The notes under the pieces were generated by a model. It was not told the origin of the DNA. It made no database searches and saw only the letters and a list, made by a program, of their open reading frames with translations. Position numbers and translations under genes: made by a program. From Clostridiales bacterium (GTDB lineage: Bacteria > Bacillota > Clostridia > Lachnospirales > Lachnospiraceae): DNA of 64,000 bases. Where the stretch lies: the NCBI GenBank assembly GCA_020859985.1, contig JAJBVD010000052.1:24076-88075 (forward strand), read 5' to 3'. This document shows, piece after piece, positions 11,797 to 24,438 of this stretch. Position 1 is the first letter of the stretch. Each line of letters starts with the position of its first letter.

Positions 11797-13728
11797 TTAT
11801 TTCATCGTCACTGTTGGGAACAATCCTGCATCTGTATGCGGCAGAAAACAGCTTGCCACAAATTCGTCCATATAGGTAGGTTCATTGCTAAGTTCGAGAT
11901 AGGTCATATTGTGCGCTACCTCAGATACCTTCGCCTCCGCCTCATTCGACAGCAGGATCGCGTAAGCACCGGACAAAGAAGAATTCCCAATGTAGGTGAA
12001 TTTCTCCATGTCAATATCCGGGAACATGCCGATGGACACGGCATTACGCATATTAATGCCGCTGCCGATTCCGCCTGCCACATAAACATGATCGATCATG
12101 GAAACATCAAAATCCAATGACTGCAGCATCACGCGGATGGCGGAGAAAATAGCCCCCTTCGCACGGATGAAGCTGTCGATGTCAACCTCCGTAATCTCGA
12201 TATCTTTTACAGAAGCGGCATTTTCCTTGTATTCCAGCACAAAGCTGCCCATACCGTACTGGTCATGACGGACACGCTCGCCCTCGCGGATGAACTTACC
12301 CTTCGGGCTGATAATGCCGCAGCGGAACAACTCACTGATCACATCAATGATGCCGGAACCACACAGGCCGACCGGCTTCTGTCCCTCGTCACCGACAATG
12401 GTAAAGGTCGGTTCCATTGTATCCTTATCGATCACACAGGCCTCAATCGCACCGTCCGTCGCACGCATACCGCAGCTGATGTCGCCGCCCTCAAATGCCG
12501 GACCTGCGGAGCAGGCACAACTCATCATAAATTCTGAGTTACCAAAAACCAGCTCGCCGTTCGTACCCAAATCGATAAATAAGGACATCTCCTCTTTGTT
12601 CCAGATCGTGCTGGAAAGCGTACCCGCGGTGATGTCGCCGCCCACGTAGCTGCCGATGTTCGGGGAAATGATCACACGGGCATGTTCGTAAAGATGAAGC
12701 CCCAGGTCCCGCGCAAATACGGAATCCGTCTCAAAAAAGGTCGGGATAAACGGCTCCATACGAACCGGATCCGCATCCACGCCGAGCAGCAGATGGTTCA
12801 TTGTCGTATTTCCGGCAATGCTCGCGCGATAGACCTGACGCGGCGAAATGCCGATTGAACCACACATCTGATGGATCATCGGGTTGAGCGTCTCTTTGAT
12901 GATGGCGTCCTGCAGTTTTTTACGGCCGCCATTCTTCTGCTGTTCGATAATCCTATTGATCACATCCGCTCCGTAACGGATCTGACCGTTTCCGGAAGAA
13001 CCTTTCGCAAGAATTTCTCCGGTGATCATATCAATAATCAATGCCGATACGGTTGTCGTTCCGATGTCAACTGCAAGACCGCATACCTTCACGTCGTCAG
13101 CGGCCGGATAGATATCCAGTACTTCGACCTTGTCTGCCTGCGCCTTTCGAATGACGCATTTTACCGCAAAAGAAGCGTTTCTAAGTGTTTCCGCCAGCTT
13201 TTTGAGCACAACAAAAGTCAGCTTCACCTTTGAAACACCACTGGCAGCTTCGACGGCCCAGATCAGGCGTTCGTTATCCGGCATAGTATCATCCAGAGAC
13301 GGCTCGTCCATCTGTACAGTAACAACCTCGAAATCGTTGTGGAAGGCAATTCCGGCTTCGACCATATCCGCCTTGGTTTTTTCAAAAATCTGTATTTCTT
13401 CTGCCGAACTTAAGTCCGCCACCTTCATCCGGCTGCGATATGCGGAAGCGATATCCGGTACAAGCACCTCCACATCCGCATTGATCTTGCTCACACAGGC
13501 TAACCTCCACCCCTGCGCGAACTCCTCATCGGAGATATGGCTGGTCTTCTTCGTGTCCAGATCACCTCCGACAAGCTTTACTTTACATTTTCCGCAAGCT
13601 GCATTTCCATTACACGGCGCATCGATCGCGACATTCATCTTTTTTGCCACATCCAGAAGGCTTTCTCCTTCCAATGCGTAACCTACTGTCTCGCTGCCGT
13701 TCTCAAATTGAAAAGTCACCTTAAACAT
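11797..13728 (-). CDS. acsV: Corrinoid activation/regeneration protein AcsV (RACo, 2Fe-2S + ASKHA)
   Basis: N-terminal CNGNAACGKC...RLAC; VDIGTTT, DLGTNGE, CSAGPAFEG. Confidence 0.93.
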   Translation of the reverse strand: MFKVTFQFENGSETVGYALEGESLLDVAKKMNVAIDAPCNGNAACGKCKVKLVGGDLDTKKTSHISDEEFAQGWRLACVSKINADVEVLVPDIASAYRSRMKVADLSSAEEIQIFEKTKADMVEAGIAFHNDFEVVTVQMDEPSLDDTMPDNERLIWAVEAASGVSKVKLTFVVLKKLAETLRNASFAVKCVIRKAQADKVEVLDIYPAADDVKVCGLAVDIGTTTVSALIIDMITGEILAKGSSGNGQIRYGADVINRIIEQQKNGGRKKLQDAIIKETLNPMIHQMCGSIGISPRQVYRASIAGNTTMNHLLLGVDADPVRMEPFIPTFFETDSVFARDLGLHLYEHARVIISPNIGSYVGGDITAGTLSSTIWNKEEMSLFIDLGTNGELVFGNSEFMMSCACSAGPAFEGGDISCGMRATDGAIEACVIDKDTMEPTFTIVGDEGQKPVGLCGSGIIDVISELFRCGIISPKGKFIREGERVRHDQYGMGSFVLEYKENAASVKDIEITEVDIDSFIRAKGAIFSAIRVMLQSLDFDVSMIDHVYVAGGIGSGINMRNAVSIGMFPDIDMEKFTYIGNSSLSGAYAILLSNEAEAKVSEVAHNMTYLELSNEPTYMDEFVASCFLPHTDAGLFPTVTMK

Positions 13729-13958
13729 AGTTTTTCTCTCCATAAATGTTCTTTTTTTACCTAATGGCAGGTACATAATTGAAAATGCAAGCTATAGAAA
13801 GCGTCAAAAAATTTTGTCGTTTCCTATACATATATACCCGGAGCAGCATACAAACAGTGTAAAAAACTGTCGTATACTCCCCGGGTATATGAAAGAAATT
13901 CATTATCTTATCCGCAAAAGCGAATTACCGAGAATTACCGATGTAAACCAGAGAATCA

Positions 13959-14744
13959 TCAAATCTCCAGATAGGAATCCGCATACAGCGTATTGCTCTT
14001 GAACACGTCGCAGGACTTGATGGTCTCCATCAGGCGCAGGTCGTTCGGGTTTACGATTGCAGAGGTAAGGCCCTGCATCATAGCCATTGCTACCAGAGCA
14101 GAGTCCATGATCGGACGGATGTGCTTCGGCATACCGTTGGAGTTATTGGAAAGTCCGCCTGTGGAGTTCAGACCCATATCGGAGAGCATCTTGATGAATT
14201 CAAGGATCTCCATCTGCTTGTCCTGCATACCCTTTACAACAAGGAACAGCGGGTCAAACCACATGTCGGTCGGCTCCATGCCTTGCTCCATGCCTCTCTC
14301 CAGAAGCATCTGGCAGTAGCCCATACGCTCGTCATTGTCTTTTGCGATACCTTCGCCGTTGCAAAGCGCAATAACGATAGCGTCATTGGCTGCAGCAAGG
14401 TCGATGTTCTCAATTCTTCCGGAAGCATCCGCAGAGTTTACAATCGGCTTTCCCTTGGAGCGGTTGTAAACAGAGATACCTGCCTCGATTGCCTTCTTGT
14501 TGGAGGTATCCAGTGCAAGCGGAACATTGTCGAAATTGCTCTGAAGAAGCTGAACCGCCCACTTCATCAGATCCTCTCCGTCTGCCTCTGCAGGTCCGAT
14601 GTTTACATCAAGGTAAACGGCACCGGCATCCAGCTGCTGTTTTGCTCTTTTCAGGATCGGCTCCGGGTCTCTCTCGGTAAACGCTTTGTTAACTGCCGGA
14701 GCAGTGGTGGAAAGTCTCTCACCAATCGTTACAAATTTTGCCAT
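13959..14744 (-). CDS. acsE: Methyltetrahydrofolate:corrinoid/FeS protein methyltransferase
   Basis: IGERLS, LDVNIGP, IVNSAD, WFDPL, GGLSNNSNG; acs cluster context. Confidence 0.95.
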   Translation of the reverse strand: MAKFVTIGERLSTTAPAVNKAFTERDPEPILKRAKQQLDAGAVYLDVNIGPAEADGEDLMKWAVQLLQSNFDNVPLALDTSNKKAIEAGISVYNRSKGKPIVNSADASGRIENIDLAAANDAIVIALCNGEGIAKDNDERMGYCQMLLERGMEQGMEPTDMWFDPLFLVVKGMQDKQMEILEFIKMLSDMGLNSTGGLSNNSNGMPKHIRPIMDSALVAMAMMQGLTSAIVNPNDLRLMETIKSCDVFKSNTLYADSYLEI

Positions 14745-14899
14745 GATGGTTCTCCTTATTTGATTATGTATGCCGCCTGACCACAGGATATATGTTTGTA
14801 CTACGTTCACAGCATATGTGAAGATCTGTACCAAATCGTCATGATAAAATTACATATATTTCCTGTGATCGGCCAGCAGAATAAAAGGTTACAAATAGA

Positions 14900-16243
14900 T
14901 TACAGTTCTTTCATAAACTTCACAAGCTGTACAGCCTCTCTCGGCGCAATAATAATTTCCCATCCCGGAAGCTTCGCCTCCAGCTCGCCCTTCAGCACGG
15001 CCACCTTGCCCGGAATGATCAGCTTTCTGGATTTTACCTTGCCCTCGATGTCCTGCTCAGCAAAGAACTTCGCGATCGTTCCCGCTGAGAACTTGCCTGC
15101 TGCCCAGCTGGTCAGTACGGAAAGTCCGCCTGCATCGTTGATGATGAGGTTGCACGGCACACCGGAGCGCTCCAGCTCGCCGGATACCAGGAAGTAGGTC
15201 AGAGCGAAGTCTACCGTCGTCAGGCAGACGGAATTCTCGTCCGCGCCGTTCAGCGGATAGATGCCCGGCTCTACCTTCATAGGCTTCTGCGGGTCGGTAA
15301 ACAGGTTCTGTCTCAGACCGTATACCGGGTTTGCTTCCGCATAGGTCATCTGATCCAGTACGATGATGGAACCGTACTTCATCGTGAACAGAGAAAGCAG
15401 AGCTGCCTGCAGATGCTTGTCTCCGCCGCTCAGACGGTCAAGACGTACGATGGACGGATAACCACAGGTACGGTCGCTGTCCTTGATGGCCGCTTTACGG
15501 AACTGTACCGCGATCTGATAAGCTTCCTTCACGGAATTTACGCCGCAGTCAAAGATCAGATTCTTATTGCCAAGCTTCTCAAGGGCTGCCAGTGTGTCAT
15601 ACAGCTCATTGATGTCCGCGCCCTGCACGCCAAGCGTTACGCCGGCATCAGTCGCGACTTTGTTCATTGCTTCATAGTTGGAAGCATTCGCGCCGTTCAG
15701 CACCGGTTTTTTGTCCTTTACAAGGGCAACAGCCTCTGCCGCTACTTCCGGATCGTCGCAGCCAAGGATCAGCACACGGTCAAGCTCAGCAGCTTTCTTA
15801 ACAACTTCCAGATATTTGTCTTTTCCTGCATTCGGAGCATAGTTTACATATACCATCTCCGTGAACATACGCTCGCCGATACGCTCATAATCAACGGACT
15901 TGATCTCCTCAAGCTTTGCGTCGATTGCAGCGTCATCCATGCAGCTGCATACGGTAACTGCATAGCGTGTTCTGCTGACAAAGGTTTTCTCATGACGGAA
16001 CAGAACCGTTTCGCCGCCGAGGGTATACTCGTTATCGCCGGCACCAACCTTGATGGTCTTCATTGGCGGCGCAGTCGCCTCATTCAGGGAAGCCTTTGCT
16101 TCCTCAGAGAAATACGGACAAGCGTCAATGGATGCGGAACCCTGAGCAACCTTCATGGAGAATGCCATACAGGTCGGGCTGCCGCACTCCTTGCAGTTTT
16201 TCTTCGGTGATAATTTAAAAATATCCAAGCCTTTTAATGCCAT
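14900..16243 (-). CDS. acsC: Corrinoid iron-sulfur protein large subunit
   Basis: NCKECGSPTCMAF...CPY cluster motif, TDPQKP, TVDFALTYF, SVLTSWAAGKF. Confidence 0.97.
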   Translation of the reverse strand: MALKGLDIFKLSPKKNCKECGSPTCMAFSMKVAQGSASIDACPYFSEEAKASLNEATAPPMKTIKVGAGDNEYTLGGETVLFRHEKTFVSRTRYAVTVCSCMDDAAIDAKLEEIKSVDYERIGERMFTEMVYVNYAPNAGKDKYLEVVKKAAELDRVLILGCDDPEVAAEAVALVKDKKPVLNGANASNYEAMNKVATDAGVTLGVQGADINELYDTLAALEKLGNKNLIFDCGVNSVKEAYQIAVQFRKAAIKDSDRTCGYPSIVRLDRLSGGDKHLQAALLSLFTMKYGSIIVLDQMTYAEANPVYGLRQNLFTDPQKPMKVEPGIYPLNGADENSVCLTTVDFALTYFLVSGELERSGVPCNLIINDAGGLSVLTSWAAGKFSAGTIAKFFAEQDIEGKVKSRKLIIPGKVAVLKGELEAKLPGWEIIIAPREAVQLVKFMKEL

Positions 16244-16274: not shown

Positions 16275-17216
16275 TTACATCAGTTCTGAAATCATGGTTT
16301 TGATGGCTCTGACAGATTCCGGATGTTTCAGAATCACAGCGTCCGAACCGGCAGCGAGAACTGCAGCAGCAGTCTCCACTTCCATATCAATACCACGCTC
16401 CTCGAGGTTGCCCCATTCAGGCATATCTGCCTCGGAAGCAGTAGACTCTTTTACAGTCCATGTTTCAGATGCGACAGGAGTAATGATCGGCATCTGCAGT
16501 GTCGCATCACCCTGCGACAGAGCAGCCGCTTTTACACGGTCAAGGGTCGATATCACATAGTCGAAACCATATCCGACTGCTGCGGTACCGGCATTCATTA
16601 CGATTGTCTTGCTGTCAACGCCAAGCTGTGTAAGAAGTACGTTCAGCTGCTTAGCAAGGTTGATATCTACAGCGGACTCCGCGCCTACGACCTGTTTGTA
16701 AGCCAGGCCTGCAGAAGCACCGATCGTCTTGTAGTTCTCTTCCTTCGCTGCAAGGATCATGGCATTTTTGCCATCCAGTGCAGCAGCAGCCTTGTCGAGA
16801 AGCTCAGCGTCCTTTTCTACATTCTTGCAGCCGCAAACAACAAGCGGAACATCAACAGCGTCAGCAACATCCTTAACGATCTGAATCAGTTCCTCTGTAG
16901 ATTTGTTTTTTCCGTTCGGATCTCCGCCTTCAAGACGGAGGCTTAAAAAGTCAACGCCCTCAAATGTAACGGCTTTCTTTGCCATGTCAACAACCGACGC
17001 GCAGCCCTCATAGAGCTTCTGTACGCACTCCGGCTCGCTCTCCATACCGCCGTCCGTGATCTCGATACCTACCTTCGGCGCATTCTCTACCGCGTCGTCA
17101 AACGTGTAGAACGGGAAAACATTCTCCCCGCCAAGCTTGATCGCCTTATCGCCGGTACCGACTTCAACGGTATTGATCTTCGCGTTAAACTTTCCTGATT
17201 TTGCAGTAAACGGCAT
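16275..17216 (-). CDS. acsD: Corrinoid iron-sulfur protein small subunit
   Basis: KLGGENVFPFY, ESAVDINLAKQLN, GYGFDY, ILKHP. Confidence 0.97.
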   Translation of the reverse strand: MPFTAKSGKFNAKINTVEVGTGDKAIKLGGENVFPFYTFDDAVENAPKVGIEITDGGMESEPECVQKLYEGCASVVDMAKKAVTFEGVDFLSLRLEGGDPNGKNKSTEELIQIVKDVADAVDVPLVVCGCKNVEKDAELLDKAAAALDGKNAMILAAKEENYKTIGASAGLAYKQVVGAESAVDINLAKQLNVLLTQLGVDSKTIVMNAGTAAVGYGFDYVISTLDRVKAAALSQGDATLQMPIITPVASETWTVKESTASEADMPEWGNLEERGIDMEVETAAAVLAAGSDAVILKHPESVRAIKTMISELM

Positions 17217-17261: not shown

Positions 17262-17417
17262 TCGAAAAAATGCTGCGCATTTTTCCTCGTTAAAGAATCA
17301 ATGCTGCCCTTGTGCCCAGCCACATAAATGTGCCTGTGCACTACGGACATTATACGGGAATTTCGCCGTAAGGCGAAATTCCCTGAAATGCGGCTGCGCC
17401 GCATTTCTGATTCTTTA
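17262..17417. repeat. Structured intergenic cassette between acsB and acsD
   Basis: 10-bp inverted repeat taaagaatca (17291-17300)/tgattcttta (17408-17417) enclosing gggaatttcgcc-gtaa-ggcgaaattccc and gaaatgcggc-tgc-gccgcatttc; an adjacent aaaaatgc-tgc-gcattttt hairpin lies just outside. Confidence 0.75.
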
Positions 17418-19541
17418 CATCATTGGCTCCATGCCGAGTGCCGGATGGCCTTTCTCGGTCAGGAACTCAAGCAATGCTTCCGGATCATCGCTAACTACGG
17501 TCTCGTCCGCAATCATATCCGTAAAGTTATCGATCCCATAAAGCTCTTTTGCCGTCTCATTCAGGCGTTCCGCAACCTGATCTTTGAGATCCTTCGGCAT
17601 CCAGACGATACGTGCGATTCCGCCCTCTGCCTTCATGAACTTCTTCGAGGAGATGAAGTGCTTGCCATGTCCCATAAAGCCCGGGGTCTGAACACCACCG
17701 CCGGTCATGGATGCCAGCTCGGAGAATGTCATGCCGATCGGAGTCATACCCGCGTACTCACGGTTCGCGATGCAGACACCGTTGGAAAGAGGCTCGATGC
17801 CGCAGATGCACTCGAAGCAGCCGCAGCTCGTCATCGGCTTCTCGATGATGGAGTACAGAGACACATCTTCCAGTGCGCCCTGAGAGAACTTACGAACCGC
17901 CTCATTGACGTCTTCGTACTCACCGATACGCTCATCGATGACTTTCTCTTTAGTGATCACCTGGCACGGTCCCTGCGGATCCAGCTCGTTGGTCGCCTTT
18001 GCATCCAGCCATGACACAGCACCGCAAAGACCAAGACGCTCCGGAGTAACCACGCAGACATGGCTCGGAGAGAATGCCTGGCACATAATGCAGCTATAGT
18101 AAACATCCACGCCCTCATCAGTCAGAGTCGTCAGACGCTCGTCACGTTTATCAAACATCGGAATCGCCAGCTCATGGCGCAGCTTTGTACACATCTCTGG
18201 ATCGGTGATCACCTTCACCTGGCACTTGTCTACAACTGCCGCGAACTCGCTCTTTACCTTTGCGTAAAGAACCTCGCCGATGTGTTTCGCACGGAAGCCT
18301 GCGTTAAAGGTATCCTTGCTGATACGAATACGGATCATATCACGCTGTCCGGTGTGCATCACACCCTCGATGCAGTTCAGATAGGAATGGAACTTACGCT
18401 CAAACACCGGTTCGAAGTCTGCCTGCATACTCTTGCCGGCAACCTCTACTATGTAACCGATGGAGTGCTTGCTGCCTACCTCAAACTCGTCGATATCCGG
18501 TCCGATCACTTCAATCTTGTGATCCTCAACCTCGGAAGCCTCTTTGTTGTGAACCAGCTCGAAGCAGTCTACACGGGAACCATCAAACTCAACCTGCATA
18601 TCGCCGCGGCGGATGATCTCACCTTCGAATGCAGAAGCAAATGCTACCGGAATGTCGATGTTGGTAATCTTAAGCTTGATATCACGGGCTTCCAGAGAAG
18701 TCGCGTTGAACTTGGAAACATCCTTCTGTACGATCAGACTCTTCGGTACGCGGAAGGTCTCTTCATTCGTGATAACCGGGAAACCAAGAGCAATCGCGCC
18801 GGCACCGGCTGCTACGATTACTTCATTCAGCGGAGCGAATGCGTTCACAAATGCCGGAACACGCTCCATCGTATACTTCATAAGTCCTGCAGCATCACCC
18901 GGTGTGATATTGCCGAAGATCAAAGCCGCTCTTACAGCAACGGACACGACATGGATCACAGCCGTGATGTCCTTGCCAAGCGGGATCACACGTACATTCG
19001 CGCCGGTCTTGTAACCCAGTTCTGTACACTGATCAATAATATCGCCGACCAGAGTCACCAGAATACCCTGCGCCTGATAGCTCTTTACCAGAGCAACGCC
19101 TTCCTCAGCAGTCGGAGCAGCACCGATGATAACCGCAACGCCCGGGATATCGCCGGTAACAAGCGGTACACCCAGCTCACGGATCACTGCATCCGCAAGA
19201 TGACCATAACACGGCTCCTCATAAGGAGTCGGATTGTCAATATACTTCAGCACTTCAATAAATTCCGCGCAAAGTGCAGTCGCGATACCGGACATGAACG
19301 CATCGTTCATTCTCGGATTTCTGGTCATCAGAGTCTTTACAACGCCAAGAGCCTCTTTGAGTTCTCCCAGATTGCCGACCTTAGTACCGGTTACACCGTA
19401 ATAACACGGAATGCTGTAAGCGGTATCCGGAAATGCTACCGGCTTATCTGCGCCATACTTCGCGATCGCGTCGTTAATCGCATTTTCCGTAAGACCATAT
19501 ACTGCGTCATTTCCTTTAAAAATAACATCAAATAAAGTCAC
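17415..19541 (-). CDS. acsB: Acetyl-CoA synthase (ACS), A-cluster subunit
   Basis: FPDTAY, CIMCQAFSPSHVCVVTPERLGLCG, TSCGCFEC: A-cluster ligands intact; GTG start after AGGAGG. Confidence 0.98.
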   Translation of the reverse strand: MTLFDVIFKGNDAVYGLTENAINDAIAKYGADKPVAFPDTAYSIPCYYGVTGTKVGNLGELKEALGVVKTLMTRNPRMNDAFMSGIATALCAEFIEVLKYIDNPTPYEEPCYGHLADAVIRELGVPLVTGDIPGVAVIIGAAPTAEEGVALVKSYQAQGILVTLVGDIIDQCTELGYKTGANVRVIPLGKDITAVIHVVSVAVRAALIFGNITPGDAAGLMKYTMERVPAFVNAFAPLNEVIVAAGAGAIALGFPVITNEETFRVPKSLIVQKDVSKFNATSLEARDIKLKITNIDIPVAFASAFEGEIIRRGDMQVEFDGSRVDCFELVHNKEASEVEDHKIEVIGPDIDEFEVGSKHSIGYIVEVAGKSMQADFEPVFERKFHSYLNCIEGVMHTGQRDMIRIRISKDTFNAGFRAKHIGEVLYAKVKSEFAAVVDKCQVKVITDPEMCTKLRHELAIPMFDKRDERLTTLTDEGVDVYYSCIMCQAFSPSHVCVVTPERLGLCGAVSWLDAKATNELDPQGPCQVITKEKVIDERIGEYEDVNEAVRKFSQGALEDVSLYSIIEKPMTSCGCFECICGIEPLSNGVCIANREYAGMTPIGMTFSELASMTGGGVQTPGFMGHGKHFISSKKFMKAEGGIARIVWMPKDLKDQVAERLNETAKELYGIDNFTDMIADETVVSDDPEALLEFLTEKGHPALGMEPMM

Positions 19542-19576: not shown

Positions 19577-20269
19577 TCAGATTTCAATCGCCTGACGCTT
19601 TTTCTCGATGTCTGCGATCAGCGCGTCCGCAAGCTCATCAAGATCAGCAGATACAGTATGCTTTGCCTCTGCCCCATCCTTCAGACCGCTGGCCGCGATC
19701 ACATCCTCGAGTGCGCCCTCATAAGGCATGATACCGATAAATGTATCTACCCCAAGACCGACAAACGTATTGCCAAGCTCGACGGCCTGTGCTGTCACGC
19801 CAGCAGCATCACAGCCCACGACCGGAAGCTGCGGTACGGTAAGTCCCGAATCCGCCGAAAGTGCCTGAGCAATCGTTACGACATTGCCAGTGTTTTCCAG
19901 TCCGCCAAGCGGCAGCACCGGAGGAATCTCCGCCAATTCACAGACACGCTTCAGTCCCGCTCCGCACAGATCCTTCGCTTCCGGATTCAGAAGCCCCGCA
20001 TCAGCAGCTACCGTAACCGGGTAACCAATCGCGAGTACAACGATATCATTCGCGATCAGCTTTTTAATCAGAGCCGTATACTCTTCTTTATCCCGTACAT
20101 CTGAACCATCTGTGCCAAGCAAAACTGCCGCGCCGCGAAGAACGCCGGACACAACACAGTCCAGCAGCGGCTTTGTGGATCCGGTCGAATCCACCTTCGA
20201 ATTACATACGCCATCCAGCGCCTGGATGATGTCCGCTACTTCAAGCTTCGGTAATGCAGAATCACTCAT
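19577..20269 (-). CDS. Stand-alone paralogue of the CODH C-terminal domain lacking C-cluster ligands (function unknown)
   Basis: Gapless manual alignment to CooS C-terminus, 86/174 identical, e.g. AKDLCGAGLKRVCELA(D/E)IPPVL; intact ORF with SD. Confidence 0.9.
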   Translation of the reverse strand: MSDSALPKLEVADIIQALDGVCNSKVDSTGSTKPLLDCVVSGVLRGAAVLLGTDGSDVRDKEEYTALIKKLIANDIVVLAIGYPVTVAADAGLLNPEAKDLCGAGLKRVCELAEIPPVLPLGGLENTGNVVTIAQALSADSGLTVPQLPVVGCDAAGVTAQAVELGNTFVGLGVDTFIGIMPYEGALEDVIAASGLKDGAEAKHTVSADLDELADALIADIEKKRQAIEI

Positions 20270-20375
20270 TTCATTCGCCTCTTTTCTTTTTTGTTGAGTA
20301 TCATTAACAGGGAACGATCACAGTTCGCAGGAAAAAACATATGCACGTCCGGTTCCCTGCAGGTCGTTACTTATA

Positions 20376-20404
20376 TTTATACCAACAGATTGCATTTTTT
20401 GCAA
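20376..20404 (-). promoter_or_regulatory. SigA-type promoter upstream of the CODH-domain gene and acsB
   Basis: TTGCAA-17 nt-TATAAA with TG extension. Confidence 0.65.
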
Positions 20405-20476
20405 CTGAAATTAATACATTCTGCACATTTTTTGGTTAAACAGTTCTGAACAGCATCGAAATGAAAAGACAGACTA

Positions 20477-20596
20477 GGCAGGTTTACCTGCCAAAGGCTG
20501 TATTTTCATTTCGGGGTGGGCGGAACGCCCATCCAGCCTCAGACATATGACGCGCAAGCGGCATATAGCCTGCATTGCAGGCGGTCTGTGGCCTGC
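20477..20596. other. Hairpin array downstream of cooC
   Basis: ggcaggt-tt-acctgcc; gggtgggcg-gaa-cgcccatcc inside aggctg/cagcct; atatgacgc-gcaa-gcggcatat; gcctgca-t-tgcaggc. Confidence 0.6.
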
Positions 20597-20604
20597 TGTT
20601 CAAT

Positions 20605-21378
20605 TTAGAAAGAACTTGACTTATCCAGAATCTCCTTGATTGCGCGAATCTCGCTGACAGCGGTCGTGCTGTAATCATACGGCGAAGAACCGTTGCGATC
20701 CGCGTCAATAATCTCCGGGTTGTAATGGATCACACCGAGCAGATCCTCTGAAGGGATCTTTGCACGGATAAATTCTTCATCCTTATCATCCCGCACTTTA
20801 TTGGCCACCACAAAGACCTGCTTCACGCCGAGATCGTCGGCAAGGCGTTTTACATTGCGGTAAGTCTGGACACTTCTCGCGCCCGGCTCAATGACGACGA
20901 TAAACGCATCCATACCGCTCGTCGTCCCGCGTCCCAGATGTTCGAGACCTGCTTCCATGTCAAGGATGACTACATCATCCGAGCGAAGCATCAAGTGATT
21001 GATGATCCGTTTCAGCATGACATGCTCCGGGCAGACACATCCGCTGCCGCCAGTTTCTACTGTACCAAGAACGAGGAGCTTCACGCCATTGCATTTCTTC
21101 GCGTATTTATCCGGGATATCATCCACCTTCGGATTAAGCTTGAAAATCTTGTTGAATTCATCCGCACCGGTGCGTTCCTGCACCAGCTTCCGCATTTTTG
21201 TGATCGGCACGATCTCATCCAGATCTTTTTCGTCAAATCCGAGCGCCAGACCGAGGTTAGCATCAGGATCAGCGTCCGCCGCCAGCACGGAGCGGCCCTC
21301 ATCCGCGTAAAGCCGTGCCAGCGTCGCCGCAAATGTTGTCTTACCTACCCCGCCTTTTCCGGTAATCGCAATCTTCAT
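20605..21378 (-). CDS. cooC: CODH nickel-insertion ATPase CooC
   Basis: GKGGVGKT, DADPDANL, GCVCP Ni motif, DMEAGLEHLGRG. Confidence 0.95.
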   Translation of the reverse strand: MKIAITGKGGVGKTTFAATLARLYADEGRSVLAADADPDANLGLALGFDEKDLDEIVPITKMRKLVQERTGADEFNKIFKLNPKVDDIPDKYAKKCNGVKLLVLGTVETGGSGCVCPEHVMLKRIINHLMLRSDDVVILDMEAGLEHLGRGTTSGMDAFIVVIEPGARSVQTYRNVKRLADDLGVKQVFVVANKVRDDKDEEFIRAKIPSEDLLGVIHYNPEIIDADRNGSSPYDYSTTAVSEIRAIKEILDKSSSF

Positions 21379-21480: not shown

Positions 21481-23373
21481 TCAGATACCTAATGCCGTTC
21501 TCTTCTCCTCGATCCGCTCGATCATTTTATCAACGAGCTTATCGATATCGGTCTCTACCGTGTAAGCAGCCTCTACCCAGTCGCGAATGCCGTTCTGCAG
21601 CAGATCTTCTACCTCAGAAGAGCCTGCTGCGTAGGGATCTACGCCAAGGAAGGTGTCAAGACCAGTCGCTACAACATAGTTACCAATGGATACGGCCTTC
21701 TCGGACATCCACTCTGGTGCGCAGCCGACTACCGGAAGCTGGGAAATATTCCAGCCGGAATCCTTCGCCAAATCTGCTACCAGAACCATCATACGGCTGA
21801 TATCTACACAGGAGCCCATGTGAAGTACCGGCGGGATGTCAGCCAGTTCACAGACTCTCTTAAGTCCCGCGCCGCAGAGATCCTTTGCTCTCTTATCCAT
21901 CAGGCCCGCTCTTGCCGCTGCCTGTGCGGAGCAACCGGAAGCTACGATCACGATATCATTCTCGATCAGCTTCTTCATCAGGGCGATGTGTGCGGTATCC
22001 GGACGAACCTTCGGGTTGTTGCAGCCTACCATCGCAACAGCGCCGCGGATAACGCCGGAATTGATGCACTCAACCAGCGGCTTCAGTGTGCCGGTCTCAT
22101 CAACCTGAGAGTTGGTAACGGTATCCAGGGTCTTCTTAATCGCTTCTACAGAATAACCAACGGTTGCTTTCTGCTTCAGCTGCGGGATATGTACAAGCTC
22201 CGGCTTGCGGTTCTTAAAGTTCTCGATCGCCATCTTTACGATCGCTTTTGCGTTTTCCCCTGCGTTCTCCGGTGAGAAACGGATGTAATCGCTCTCCGGC
22301 ATCTGCGCGATCGGAGAAGTCGTGATGAACTTGGTATGGAAGCATTTTGCCAGCGGTCCGATTGCCGGGAAAATACACTGTACATCCACCACGATTGCCT
22401 CACAGGCGCCGGTCAGGATGACATTCTCCTGCTGAAGGAAGTTGCCCGCCATCGGGATACCACGGCGCATCGCTACCTCATTCGATGTACAGCAGACACC
22501 GGATACAGTGATGCCTTTCGCGCCCATTTCTTTCGCATATGCGATCATTTCCGGATCGTCCGCGTACTCGCAGATCATCTCAGAAAGCGACGGATCATGG
22601 CCGTGTACAACAATGTTTACATTTTCTTCTACCATAACGCCAAGGTTCGCCTCGGTGTCGATCGGCTTCGGTGTACCAAACAGGACATCGGAGAATTCGG
22701 TACCAGCCATGGAGCCGCCCCAGCCATCAGCCAGACCAGCACGAAGAGACTGACGGATCAGCGCTTCCGGCTTGGAAGAACATCCCATATGGGTCATATG
22801 CATCGCGCAGGATACCTCACGGTCGATCGCACGCGGCTGAATTTCTGCTTTCTCCCACAGCTCCTGTGTGTGCTGCGGTGCACGCTTTAGGAAATTCTGG
22901 AACCCAAATACCTTACCATACTCTCCAAGAGCAAGGACTGCCATCTCATGAGCCAGATCATAGATGTCCTTGCCCTCGGTCTCCACACCCCACTCATGAG
23001 CGATGCGGATCAGCTTCTCCGGATCCTTTACCTTATAGTTGCCATTCGGATCTGCGCAGTACAGTGTGTGGCAGATCTCACGGCCGTGATCGGAATGTGT
23101 TGCGGCTCCGCCGGCAGTAAATCTCAGGAAATTACGTCCAACGATACCATGTGCATCACAGCCGCAGATTCCGCGCGGCGCCTTCGGCGTAATGCGGCAC
23201 GGTCCCATCGAACAGATACGGCAGCAGACACCCTGCTCACCAAATTTGCAGTGCGGCGTCTGATTCTTCACACGGAACTGATATGCGTCCGCTCCTACCT
23301 TTGCACCTGTCTCGAGGAGCCGGTTCGTAGCTGCTTCGAACTCCTCAATTGTTGTCAGCTTAAAGTCTCCCAT
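21481..23373 (-). CDS. cooS: Anaerobic Ni-Fe carbon monoxide dehydrogenase catalytic subunit
   Basis: HCKFGEQGVCCRICSMGPC...GICG (D/B clusters); HGHDP, GVCCT, VQCIFP, GCNN, SGCS, GSCVD, SEKA all present; GGAGG SD before ATG 23373. Confidence 0.98.
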   Translation of the reverse strand: MGDFKLTTIEEFEAATNRLLETGAKVGADAYQFRVKNQTPHCKFGEQGVCCRICSMGPCRITPKAPRGICGCDAHGIVGRNFLRFTAGGAATHSDHGREICHTLYCADPNGNYKVKDPEKLIRIAHEWGVETEGKDIYDLAHEMAVLALGEYGKVFGFQNFLKRAPQHTQELWEKAEIQPRAIDREVSCAMHMTHMGCSSKPEALIRQSLRAGLADGWGGSMAGTEFSDVLFGTPKPIDTEANLGVMVEENVNIVVHGHDPSLSEMICEYADDPEMIAYAKEMGAKGITVSGVCCTSNEVAMRRGIPMAGNFLQQENVILTGACEAIVVDVQCIFPAIGPLAKCFHTKFITTSPIAQMPESDYIRFSPENAGENAKAIVKMAIENFKNRKPELVHIPQLKQKATVGYSVEAIKKTLDTVTNSQVDETGTLKPLVECINSGVIRGAVAMVGCNNPKVRPDTAHIALMKKLIENDIVIVASGCSAQAAARAGLMDKRAKDLCGAGLKRVCELADIPPVLHMGSCVDISRMMVLVADLAKDSGWNISQLPVVGCAPEWMSEKAVSIGNYVVATGLDTFLGVDPYAAGSSEVEDLLQNGIRDWVEAAYTVETDIDKLVDKMIERIEEKRTALGI

Positions 23374-23401
23374 AGTAACCTCCATGTTATATTATTATAG
23401 T

Positions 23402-23419
23402 AAACGACGTAAGTCGTTT
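23402..23419. promoter_or_regulatory. Candidate operator in the cooS promoter
   Basis: aaacgac-gtaa-gtcgttt directly upstream of minus-strand TATAAT (23394-23399). Confidence 0.65.
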
Positions 23420-23501: not shown

Positions 23502-24272
23502 TTATAAACCAATCTTACTCATAATCTCCTCCAGTGCTTTGCGCACAGGAGAATCCTCCGGCAAAGAGGAAGTGGGCCGTCCATCGCAGTCATACTCATA
23601 GACCTGCTCGTCCTGCGGTACGATTCCAAGGAGCTTTAATCCGCTTTTCTCAATCTCCTCTTTGGTACCGGCATTTAACACACCGCCCGGCGCCCGGTTC
23701 ACGATCAAACCCATCGTCTTCGGATTCAGATGACATTCTTCCACCAGCTCCGCAATCCGCTCTGTCGCCTGAACGCCTCGTCTGGAACAGTCGCTCACCA
23801 GAATCATCGTATCGACTTTTGGCAGAATGCCGCGGCTGATGTGTTCCATCCCCGCTTCATTATCCACGACCACATATTTATAGTTCGGGATCAGCTTCGC
23901 CAGCTGTGCCTGCAAAAGACCGTTCACATAGCAATAACATCCCTGTCCCTGCGAGCGTCCCATCACCAGAAGGTCAAAATCGTCATCCTCAGCAAGGCAG
24001 CGCTGAAGCATCATCTCGGTATAATCCGCTTTTGTCATACCGGATGGAATGCTCTGATTCAGCTTGTCCACATCATGCAGAACTGTCTCGCGGACATCGC
24101 CGAGCGTCATCTCCACATCCACGCCAAGCACTTCGTTCAGATTTGAATTCGCGTCAGCGTCCACAGCGAGGATCGGACGTTCTCCTTTCCTGCACATCGT
24201 CTGGATCAGCAGACCTCCCAGCGTGGTCTTTCCCACACCGCCTTTACCTGCAATTGCAATCACATGTGCCAT
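23502..24272 (-). CDS. cooC: CooC/AcsF-family nickel-insertion ATPase (second paralogue)
   Basis: GKGGVGKT, VDADANSNL, GCYC motif, DNEAGMEHISR. Confidence 0.92.
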   Translation of the reverse strand: MAHVIAIAGKGGVGKTTLGGLLIQTMCRKGERPILAVDADANSNLNEVLGVDVEMTLGDVRETVLHDVDKLNQSIPSGMTKADYTEMMLQRCLAEDDDFDLLVMGRSQGQGCYCYVNGLLQAQLAKLIPNYKYVVVDNEAGMEHISRGILPKVDTMILVSDCSRRGVQATERIAELVEECHLNPKTMGLIVNRAPGGVLNAGTKEEIEKSGLKLLGIVPQDEQVYEYDCDGRPTSSLPEDSPVRKALEEIMSKIGL

Positions 24273-24418: not shown

Positions 24419-24438
24419 AAAACGACGCAGGTCGTTTT
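24419..24438. promoter_or_regulatory. Candidate operator upstream of second cooC
   Basis: aaaacgac-gcag-gtcgtttt just downstream of extended -10 TG-TACAAT (24444-24449, minus strand). Confidence 0.65.

Follow-up and report, generated by a model that had tools for sequence, protein, structure and literature searches.

Why would a genome keep, two genes downstream of an intact carbon monoxide dehydrogenase (CODH) gene, a separate gene for the last domain of that enzyme with its active site replaced? The locus that raises this question lies in a 64,000-nucleotide stretch of DNA from a member of the Lachnospiraceae (Clostridiales bacterium, GenBank assembly GCA_020859985.1, contig JAJBVD010000052.1, positions 24,076 to 88,075), referred to here as the window. 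The gene encodes a protein of 230 amino acids (aa), X230, and lies, as originally predicted, between a cooC gene (cooC2) and acsB, the gene for acetyl-CoA synthase (ACS). Few carbon-fixing enzyme complexes are as old or as well studied as CODH/ACS, and the list of its bacterial parts (AcsA, AcsB, CooC/AcsF, and the corrinoid protein with its partners) has been stable for years. The analysis described below demonstrated that X230 is a pseudoenzyme-type domain paralogue inside the Prismane/CODH superfamily; its role is discussed more tentatively.

X230 is a ligand-free paralogue of the C-terminal domain of CooS

BLASTP aligned X230 with residues 413–634 of the neighboring CooS, with 104 of 222 positions identical (47%), 66% positives, E = 4e-65, and a single 2-residue gap near the C terminus; M1 of X230 aligns with L403 of CooS. 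The original prediction had described a gapless alignment with 86 of 174 residues identical, which was close to this result but not exact. It had also listed changes in four active-site motifs and a 22-residue stretch with one change between the two proteins, AKDLCGAGLKRVCELA(E/D)IPPVL, and both features were found. In the BLASTP alignment, VGCNNP, ASGCSA, MGSCVD, and APEWMSEKA of CooS are replaced in X230 by LGTDGS, AIGYPV, LGGLEN, and DAAGVTAQA, respectively.

The C-cluster ligands of Ni,Fe-CODHs are His261, Cys295, Cys333, Cys446, Cys476, and Cys526 in ChCODH-II numbering, and the catalytic acid/base residues are Lys563 and His93. Based on motif and spacing, we take C455, C485, C526, and K563 of the window CooS to be the equivalents of Cys446, Cys476, Cys526, and Lys563; the Lys563 numbering is echoed in the titles of PDB entries. 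The first three ligands fall in the middle domain, which is absent from X230, as is the His93 region. All three C-cluster cysteines of the second Rossmann fold (Rossmann 2) and the catalytic lysine are replaced. C455 corresponds to T53 in X230 (T, C, G, A, S, or V across the X family, that is, X230 and its orthologues), and K563 corresponds to Q160 (A, Q, K, T, G, or E across the family). C485 and C526 correspond to Y83 and L124, both of which are invariant across the family.

Absence of the N-terminal B/D-cluster domain and the middle domain, which had also been predicted, was evident from the profile matches. Pfam Prismane (PF03063) matched X230 with 86.5 bits (gathering score, 27), covering only the last part of the profile (positions 345–511 of 513), and NCBIfam TIGR01702 gave 91.5 bits against a cut-off of 478 (positions 417–619 of 621). 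X230 had no Pfam, NCBIfam, or PDB match other than CODH. Because it lacks clusters B, D, and C, X230 cannot oxidize CO, and by every test that defines a CODH catalytic subunit it is not one. The loss of the known ligands suggests that it is also free of metal.

A comparison of X with 25 CooS sequences gave 65 conserved positions at which the two share a residue and 32 at which each conserves a different one. The latter are concentrated in the loops that formerly bound the cluster and in the helices behind these loops (X residues 120–134 and 154–172, Y83, and Y64). X230 and cooS are the only two Prismane-family genes in their genome, and the window CooS, which matches Clostridium autoethanogenum AcsA from end to end (6ytt_B, 728 bits, equal length, no terminal extensions), is the parent fold of X230. 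The CooS of the same genome is not more similar to X than other CooS sequences are (identity was 47% to every CooS tested), there is no concerted evolution, and the stem branch of the X family is long. Gene conversion between X and cooS was considered as a source of the shared 22-residue stretch and rejected, because only 11 of the 22 third codon positions match; the motif is common to CODHs generally.

The X family is maintained by selection

A search of 5.8 billion proteins gave about 66 clusters of X sequences, 219–232 aa in length and 61–96% identical; below 61% there was a sharp drop to at most 50%, where the matches were CooS fragments. Among 1.84 billion representatives at 50% identity the X family formed one cluster. 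Short CODH-like matches (P0143, P0253, P0275, P0277, P0193, P0138, P0140, and P0144) retain the Cys and Lys motifs and were therefore rejected as relatives of X; each represents a fragment, a chimera, or a CooS gene with a wrongly called start. No description of the X family was found in the literature.

An alignment of 32 members contained 64 invariant columns, including M1, L6, P7, L9, Y83, P120–L121, L124, and D154. X230 is under purifying selection: the median pairwise ratio of nonsynonymous to synonymous substitution rates (dN/dS) across 25 genomes was 0.064, and the values for its neighbors were 0.040 (cooS), 0.033 (cooC2), 0.094 (acsB), and 0.026 (acsE). No frameshifts or stops were found in X in 26 genomes of the genus or in 31 loci, and both start and length were conserved. 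X230 also has a fold of its own. AlphaFold2 produced a single α/β domain with a predicted local distance difference test score (pLDDT) of 84 and a predicted template-modeling score (pTM) of 0.84, in which only residues 1–30 were weak. The top 50 Foldseek matches to this model were all CODHs, and the best PDB matches were 6ytt_B (E = 7.8e-16, TMq 0.83) and 6yu9, both from C. autoethanogenum CODH (CaCODH).

These data bear on the simplest explanation of a gene of this kind, that it arose by partial duplication of cooS and is decaying, or that it is an annotation artefact. X230 is indeed a truncated copy of a neighboring gene, has lost the catalytic residues, and is absent from many congeners. 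The low dN/dS, the intact reading frames, the conserved start and length, and the confident fold all contradict decay, as do the long family stem branch, the uniform 47% identity to CooS, and the lack of gene conversion. The selection and conservation data refute this explanation for practical purposes, and we assign it a negligible probability. That X230 is a pseudoenzyme kept by selection, as the original prediction had proposed, is strongly supported: the orthologues are intact, and the replaced positions Y83, L124, and D154 are invariant or nearly so. Strain-specific occurrence, a dN/dS near 1, and frameshifted orthologues were each looked for, and none was borne out.

X is an accessory gene recurrently linked to acsB

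X was found intact, at 78–100% identity, in 31 species-level genomes, all of them gut metagenome-assembled genomes (MAGs) labeled Lachnospiraceae, Marvinbryantia sp., Clostridiales, and similar. In searches covering 400 genera of the family (one genome each) and 401 relatives from 289 genera, X was seen in the window's genus only. Within that genus it occurs in 26 of 63 species, and all 26 have the acs cluster. Wherever the contig permitted, the gene order was cooC1-cooS-cooC2-X-acsB-acsD-acsC-acsE-activator, and cooC2-X-acsB was present in more than 30 loci. In genomes without X (14 congeners and six other genera), the gap between cooC2 and acsB was 11–68 bp.

In a tree of the concatenated cluster genes, the X-bearing genomes formed separate clades interleaved with X-free clades; this pattern implies repeated gain or loss of X and shows it to be dispensable, the distribution of an accessory gene. 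In a tree of X rooted with CooS, the copies inside the cluster formed a derived clade, and the deeper branches were located elsewhere. In the basal lineage P0051, X precedes acsB with a 13-bp gap, and a divergent gene for a radical-SAM/reverse-transcriptase protein lies upstream in place of cooS and cooC. X also precedes acsB in lineage L068, follows fchA-folD on the same strand in P0062, and is convergent with fhs in P0056. In P0064, P0053/P0121, P0061, P0050, P0042, P0040, and L032, it stands alone beside unrelated genes. X is thus recurrently linked to acsB and other Wood-Ljungdahl genes.

A scan of metagenomes for X gave nine loci. The genome G462, which carries the stand-alone L032 copy, was rejected as an example of an X-bearing genome without CooS and AcsB. 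One of its contigs carries acsE-acsC-acsD and breaks off within acsB, of which the 3′ end is present, so that the apparent absence is an assembly gap (contigs C57 and C117; loci L087 and L032). The family search in this genome showed that, in fragmented MAGs, the ends of contigs have to be inspected before a gene is called absent.

The upstream gene in the P0051 lineage (L054, 2–3067; L055, 671–4468) was itself of note. It encodes, on the strand opposite to X-acsB, a 1265-aa protein that combines radical-SAM and reverse-transcriptase (RVT_1) parts; such a fusion adjoining a Wood-Ljungdahl operon is unusual.

The A1 domain of AcsB evolves faster where X is present

Rates of evolution were expressed as the distance to six outgroup genera in X-bearing genomes divided by that in X-free genomes. 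The ratio was 1.75 for the A1 domain of AcsB (residues 1–310, encoded by acsB codons 1–310) and 1.90 for AcsB residues 1–100. It was 0.94 for A2, 1.14 for A3, 0.96 for the N-terminal domain plus Rossmann 1 of CooS, 1.23 for CooS Rossmann 2, 0.97 for CooC2, and 0.87–1.05 for AcsD, AcsC, and AcsE. In a branch test with a fixed topology and branch lengths re-estimated for each partition, the A1/A2A3 branch-length ratio was 2.68 on branches leading only to X-bearing genomes versus 0.97 on those leading only to X-free genomes. Relative to A2/A3, the rate of A1 is raised about 2.8-fold in lineages with X, and no other cluster gene behaved in this way. By group, the A1/A2A3 ratios were 2.91, 2.80, and 1.43 for the X-bearing clades, 0.84 and 1.13 for the X-free groups, and 0.99 for the outgroups.

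The same shift was apparent in the type of substitutions. For A1, dN/dS was 0.139 in pairs of X-bearing genomes and 0.060 in X-free pairs; the corresponding values for A2A3 were 0.054 and 0.058. Positions conserved in at least 95% of 19 X-free AcsB sequences were variable in X-bearing genomes at 66 of 206 sites in A1 versus 11 of 270 in A2A3, and one substitution in A1, L139I, occurred in parallel in two X-bearing clades. The selective regime on A1 is therefore changed where X is present. Import of a foreign A1 together with X is unlikely as an explanation, because A1 differs more between the two main X-bearing clades than between either of them and X-free genomes. Moreover, in another X-bearing lineage (L054), A1 is the one nearest to the X-free consensus, and no such effect was seen at the 3′ end of cooC2.

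Distances between CooC2 sequences tracked those of AcsB A2/A3 (codons 311–708) with r = 0.956, and those of CooS with r = 0.85. This fits an AcsF-like role; cooC2 may thus encode an A-cluster maturase of the AcsF type rather than a second CODH maturase.

Relation of X230 to known proteins

The closest relative of known structure is the C-terminal part of C. autoethanogenum AcsA (CAETHG_1620, residues about 402–631; PDB 6YTT and 6YU9, chain B), which was the best PDB match of X230 by both sequence and structure and contains the same Rossmann fold 2. The C. autoethanogenum acsA gene is split by a TGA at codon 401, and the piece after it holds "the ACS binding domain" (bioRxiv 10.64898/2026.02.27.708534). 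Secondary literature describes this piece as carrying the loop and helix that bind ACS A1. The first residue of X230 lies within about 2 residues of the TGA position, and the N-terminal boundary is nearly shared: residue 401 of the C. autoethanogenum protein aligns with Q405 of the window CooS, two residues from the partner of X230 M1. The C. autoethanogenum piece is part of one readthrough protein and keeps the three C-cluster cysteines and the lysine, whereas X230 is the product of a separate gene with its own start, located beside an intact cooS, and has all four residues replaced.

Structural biologists have proposed domain duplication as the origin of the A1 domain of ACS. X230 is a domain duplicate of this kind, and its gene lies directly 5′ of the end of acsB that encodes A1; unlike A1, it is not fused to ACS and is clearly closer to CooS (47%). 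An hhalign comparison aligned X residues 40–82 with A1 residues 128–166 (β1-αA-β2) over 39 columns, a weak match (E = 0.0097, probability 4%).

Other small proteins offer looser parallels. The ε subunit of archaeal CODH, CdhB, is a small, cluster-free accessory subunit with a single Rossmann fold in a CODH/ACS-type complex (PMC11474084). The likeness to X230 is a functional analogy, a non-catalytic Rossmann protein on the complex; CdhB belongs to a different family and was detected by none of our searches. The mini-CooS proteins of Thermosinus carboxydivorans and clade G (428–482 aa) are, like X230, shortened Prismane/CODH members, but they keep all 11 cysteines and the histidine of clusters B, C, and D and are thought to be active (PMC3328121), whereas X230 is one domain with no ligands. 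CODH surveys have dropped sequences that were shorter than 400 aa or lacked ligands (PMC8776680); this filter would have removed X230, and such proteins have been systematically overlooked.

Uncharacterized metagenomic proteins (P0286, P0200, and P0317) represent a second CODH derivative, independent of X230, that lacks the ligands and retains Rossmann 2. These P0286-like proteins have GP, GG, and GSF where CooS has GC, GC, and GSC. They differ from X230 in size (about 380 aa) and in keeping part of the helical domain (CooS 119–241) without Rossmann 1. They come from a high-GC organism and are only about 30% identical to CooS or X; P0200 is a 5′-truncated call of such a protein. At least once, on a high-GC metagenomic contig, the gene lies directly upstream of acsB (L053, 3–746 and 924–3113).

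Possible roles of X230

We consider X230 to be, with a probability slightly short of even, a non-catalytic accessory protein at the CODH–ACS interface. As a single-domain copy of the CODH domain that bears the ACS-docking element, it would in the simplest form occupy AcsB A1 in place of CooS, and it could serve as a cap or placeholder for ACS undocked from CooS, or it could assist assembly. Physical binding of X to AcsB, like the effect of such binding, is an inference. In a more specific proposal, X230 would dock on AcsB, either on A1 or, as Rossmann 2 of methanogen CODH does, on the A-cluster domain. It would assume part of the function of the interface or of the gas-channel cap, and selection on A1 would thereby be relaxed or redirected; we think this unlikely. 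The connection with ACS that had been suggested at the outset gained indirect support from the position of X upstream of acsB in three arrangements, from the literature on the ACS-binding domain, and from the acceleration of A1; it was weakened by the dispensability of X among congeners and by the mostly stand-alone deep branches.

Several observations weigh against a role for X230 at the interface. All 14 X-free congeners that were checked keep the same cluster with cooC2 abutting acsB, so that X is dispensable there, and most deep branches of the X tree consist of genes that stand alone among unrelated neighbors. The acceleration of A1 correlates with X across about three clades, which does not prove contact. 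In mirror-tree comparisons, X distances tracked CooS best (r = 0.88, partial r = 0.67), and the partial r with A1 was 0.18. The docking element of CaCODH (the β1-αA loop and helix αA) would map to X residues 53–73, and the part of it that forms the docking loop (X 53–60) is among the least conserved segments of X, unlike CooS (TDGSDVRDKEEY versus CNNPKVRPDTAH). This variable loop and the co-variation of X with CooS argue against a simple mimic of CooS.

The same co-variation is what would be expected if X230 acted on CooS itself or on an assembly intermediate of it, modulating CODH folding, dimerization, or access to the ACS-docking site. The partial correlation with CooS was obtained after removing A1, A2A3, and CooC2, the mildly raised ratio for CooS Rossmann 2 (1.23) points the same way, and 65 positions are conserved and identical between the two proteins. 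However, the CooS surface that faces the cluster and the other domains corresponds to the most changed part of X (the 32 conserved but different positions), and the correlation may reflect clock-like evolution of both proteins, which show no concerted evolution. In addition, the P0051 lineage has X beside acsB with no cooS there. We regard an action on CooS as rather improbable. A new function unrelated to CODH/ACS, such as small-molecule binding or catalysis in the former cluster crevice, would make the location in the cluster incidental, and we regard this, too, as rather improbable. It would suit the nine of about twelve lineages of known context in which X stands alone, beside unrelated genes such as those for a glycerate kinase, ApbA, a glycyl-radical enzyme, a racemase, an isochorismatase, an FGGY kinase, and a hydrolase. 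It would also suit the strong conservation of replaced loop positions (Y83, P120–L121, L124, D154, E164–L165, and T168–F169), as expected of a new site. Yet X adjoins Wood-Ljungdahl genes in five of about twelve lineages (acsB in three, fchA-folD and fhs in one each), far above the expectation for random genes, and the rate shift specific to A1 points to ACS. Small or hydrophobic residues (G, L, A, V, Y, and P) predominate among the conserved replacements, which do not form a typical catalytic or metal-binding set, and the profile and structure searches matched only CODH.

A part in handling nickel or another metal together with the CooC2/AcsF ATPase, for example as a docking platform or metal buffer in maturation of the A- or C-cluster, appears very unlikely. 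In its favor, cooC2 immediately precedes X in the main clade, X retains two invariant cysteines (C38 and C110), and the acidic residues D54, E125, and D154 lie near the former cluster site. Both cysteines are also present in the window CooS, where they are not ligands, and C38 is not conserved in C. autoethanogenum AcsA; D54 and E125 vary within the X family. Other lineages have X with no adjacent cooC. The CooC-interacting role that the original prediction had listed likewise found no backing, in that CooC2 showed no rate effect (0.97) and its distances left no residual correlation with those of X (partial r = −0.05).

Genes and sequence signals around X230

The coordinates of the features are listed in Table 1. 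The cluster genes lie on the minus strand in the order cooC1, cooS, cooC2, X230, acsB, acsD, acsC, acsE, and the gene for the corrinoid-protein activator; acsB starts 35 bp past the X230 stop codon, and cooS is 1.2 kb upstream of X230.

Table 1 Features of the CODH/ACS cluster in the window (position 1 is the first nucleotide of the window)
Feature	Position	Strand	Basis
Corrinoid-protein activator	11797–13776	−	ORF; order kept in more than 30 related loci
acsE	13959–14834	−	ORF; order kept in more than 30 related loci
acsC	14900–16243	−	ORF; order kept in more than 30 related loci
acsD	16275–17216	−	ORF; order kept in more than 30 related loci
acsB, acetyl-CoA synthase, 708 aa, GTG start, GGAGG Shine-Dalgarno sequence	17415–19541	−	Pfam CODH_A_N, CdhC, ACS_CODH_B_C
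X230, 230 aa, ATG start	19577–20269	−	Open reading frame (ORF); stand-alone CooS/AcsA C-terminal Rossmann-2 paralogue without C-cluster ligands
Shine-Dalgarno sequence AAGAGG, 8 nt before the X230 ATG	20278–20283	−	Direct sequence reading
Candidate sigma-70-type promoter, TTGCAA-17 nt-TATAAA, in the cooC2-X230 spacer	20376–20404	−	Direct sequence reading
Terminator-like hairpin GGCAGGTAAACCTGCC with T-rich tail, downstream of cooC2	20457–20492	−	Direct sequence reading
cooC2, CooC/AcsF-type P-loop maturation ATPase	20605–21378	−	Pfam CbiA/ParA-type matches
cooS/acsA, 634 aa, full-length Ni,Fe-CODH, C. autoethanogenum type	21481–23385	−	TIGR01702, 618 bits, above cut-off
Perfect palindrome AACGAC-N4-GTCGTT, upstream of cooS	23403–23418		
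cooC1, CooC-type ATPase, head of the cluster	23502–24272	−	Pfam; synteny
Perfect palindrome AACGAC-N4-GTCGTT, upstream of cooC1	24421–24436		

The original prediction had given X230 its own Shine-Dalgarno sequence and SigA-like promoter. The former was present; the latter is a candidate only, and a consensus scan listed neither it nor the hairpin downstream of cooC2. The further proposal that X heads the acsB transcript from its own promoter holds for this genome at most, since the cooC2-X spacer, 335 bp here, ranges from about 46 to 347 bp in relatives and is only about 46–60 bp in many of them; the promoter is thus a candidate and not a conserved feature among relatives. An Rfam search of the 335-bp spacer found no riboswitch or other known RNA.

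Two further observations concern the cluster as a whole. The TTG start listed for acsE at 14834 adds about 30 N-terminal residues; its homologues align from MAKFVTIGERL (about 14744), and this internal ATG is probably the true start. Allowing up to two mismatches, the palindrome AACGAC-N4-GTCGTT had six matches in the window versus 1.8 expected. Upstream of X230 there is no perfect copy, and only a half-site-like sequence (GTAACGAC) occurs near 20370.

Significance for gut acetogens

As a conserved copy of the CODH domain that docks on ACS, but one free of clusters, X230 would add a new accessory component to CODH/ACS. It also offers a concrete and testable instance of the kind of domain duplication from which ACS A1 has been proposed to originate. 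The lineages that carry X are uncultured gut Lachnospiraceae acetogens, which are relevant to hydrogen disposal in animal guts. If X230 does dock on AcsB and assume part of the interface or gas-channel function, which we think unlikely, it would represent a new way to regulate or stabilize CODH-free ACS in these organisms.

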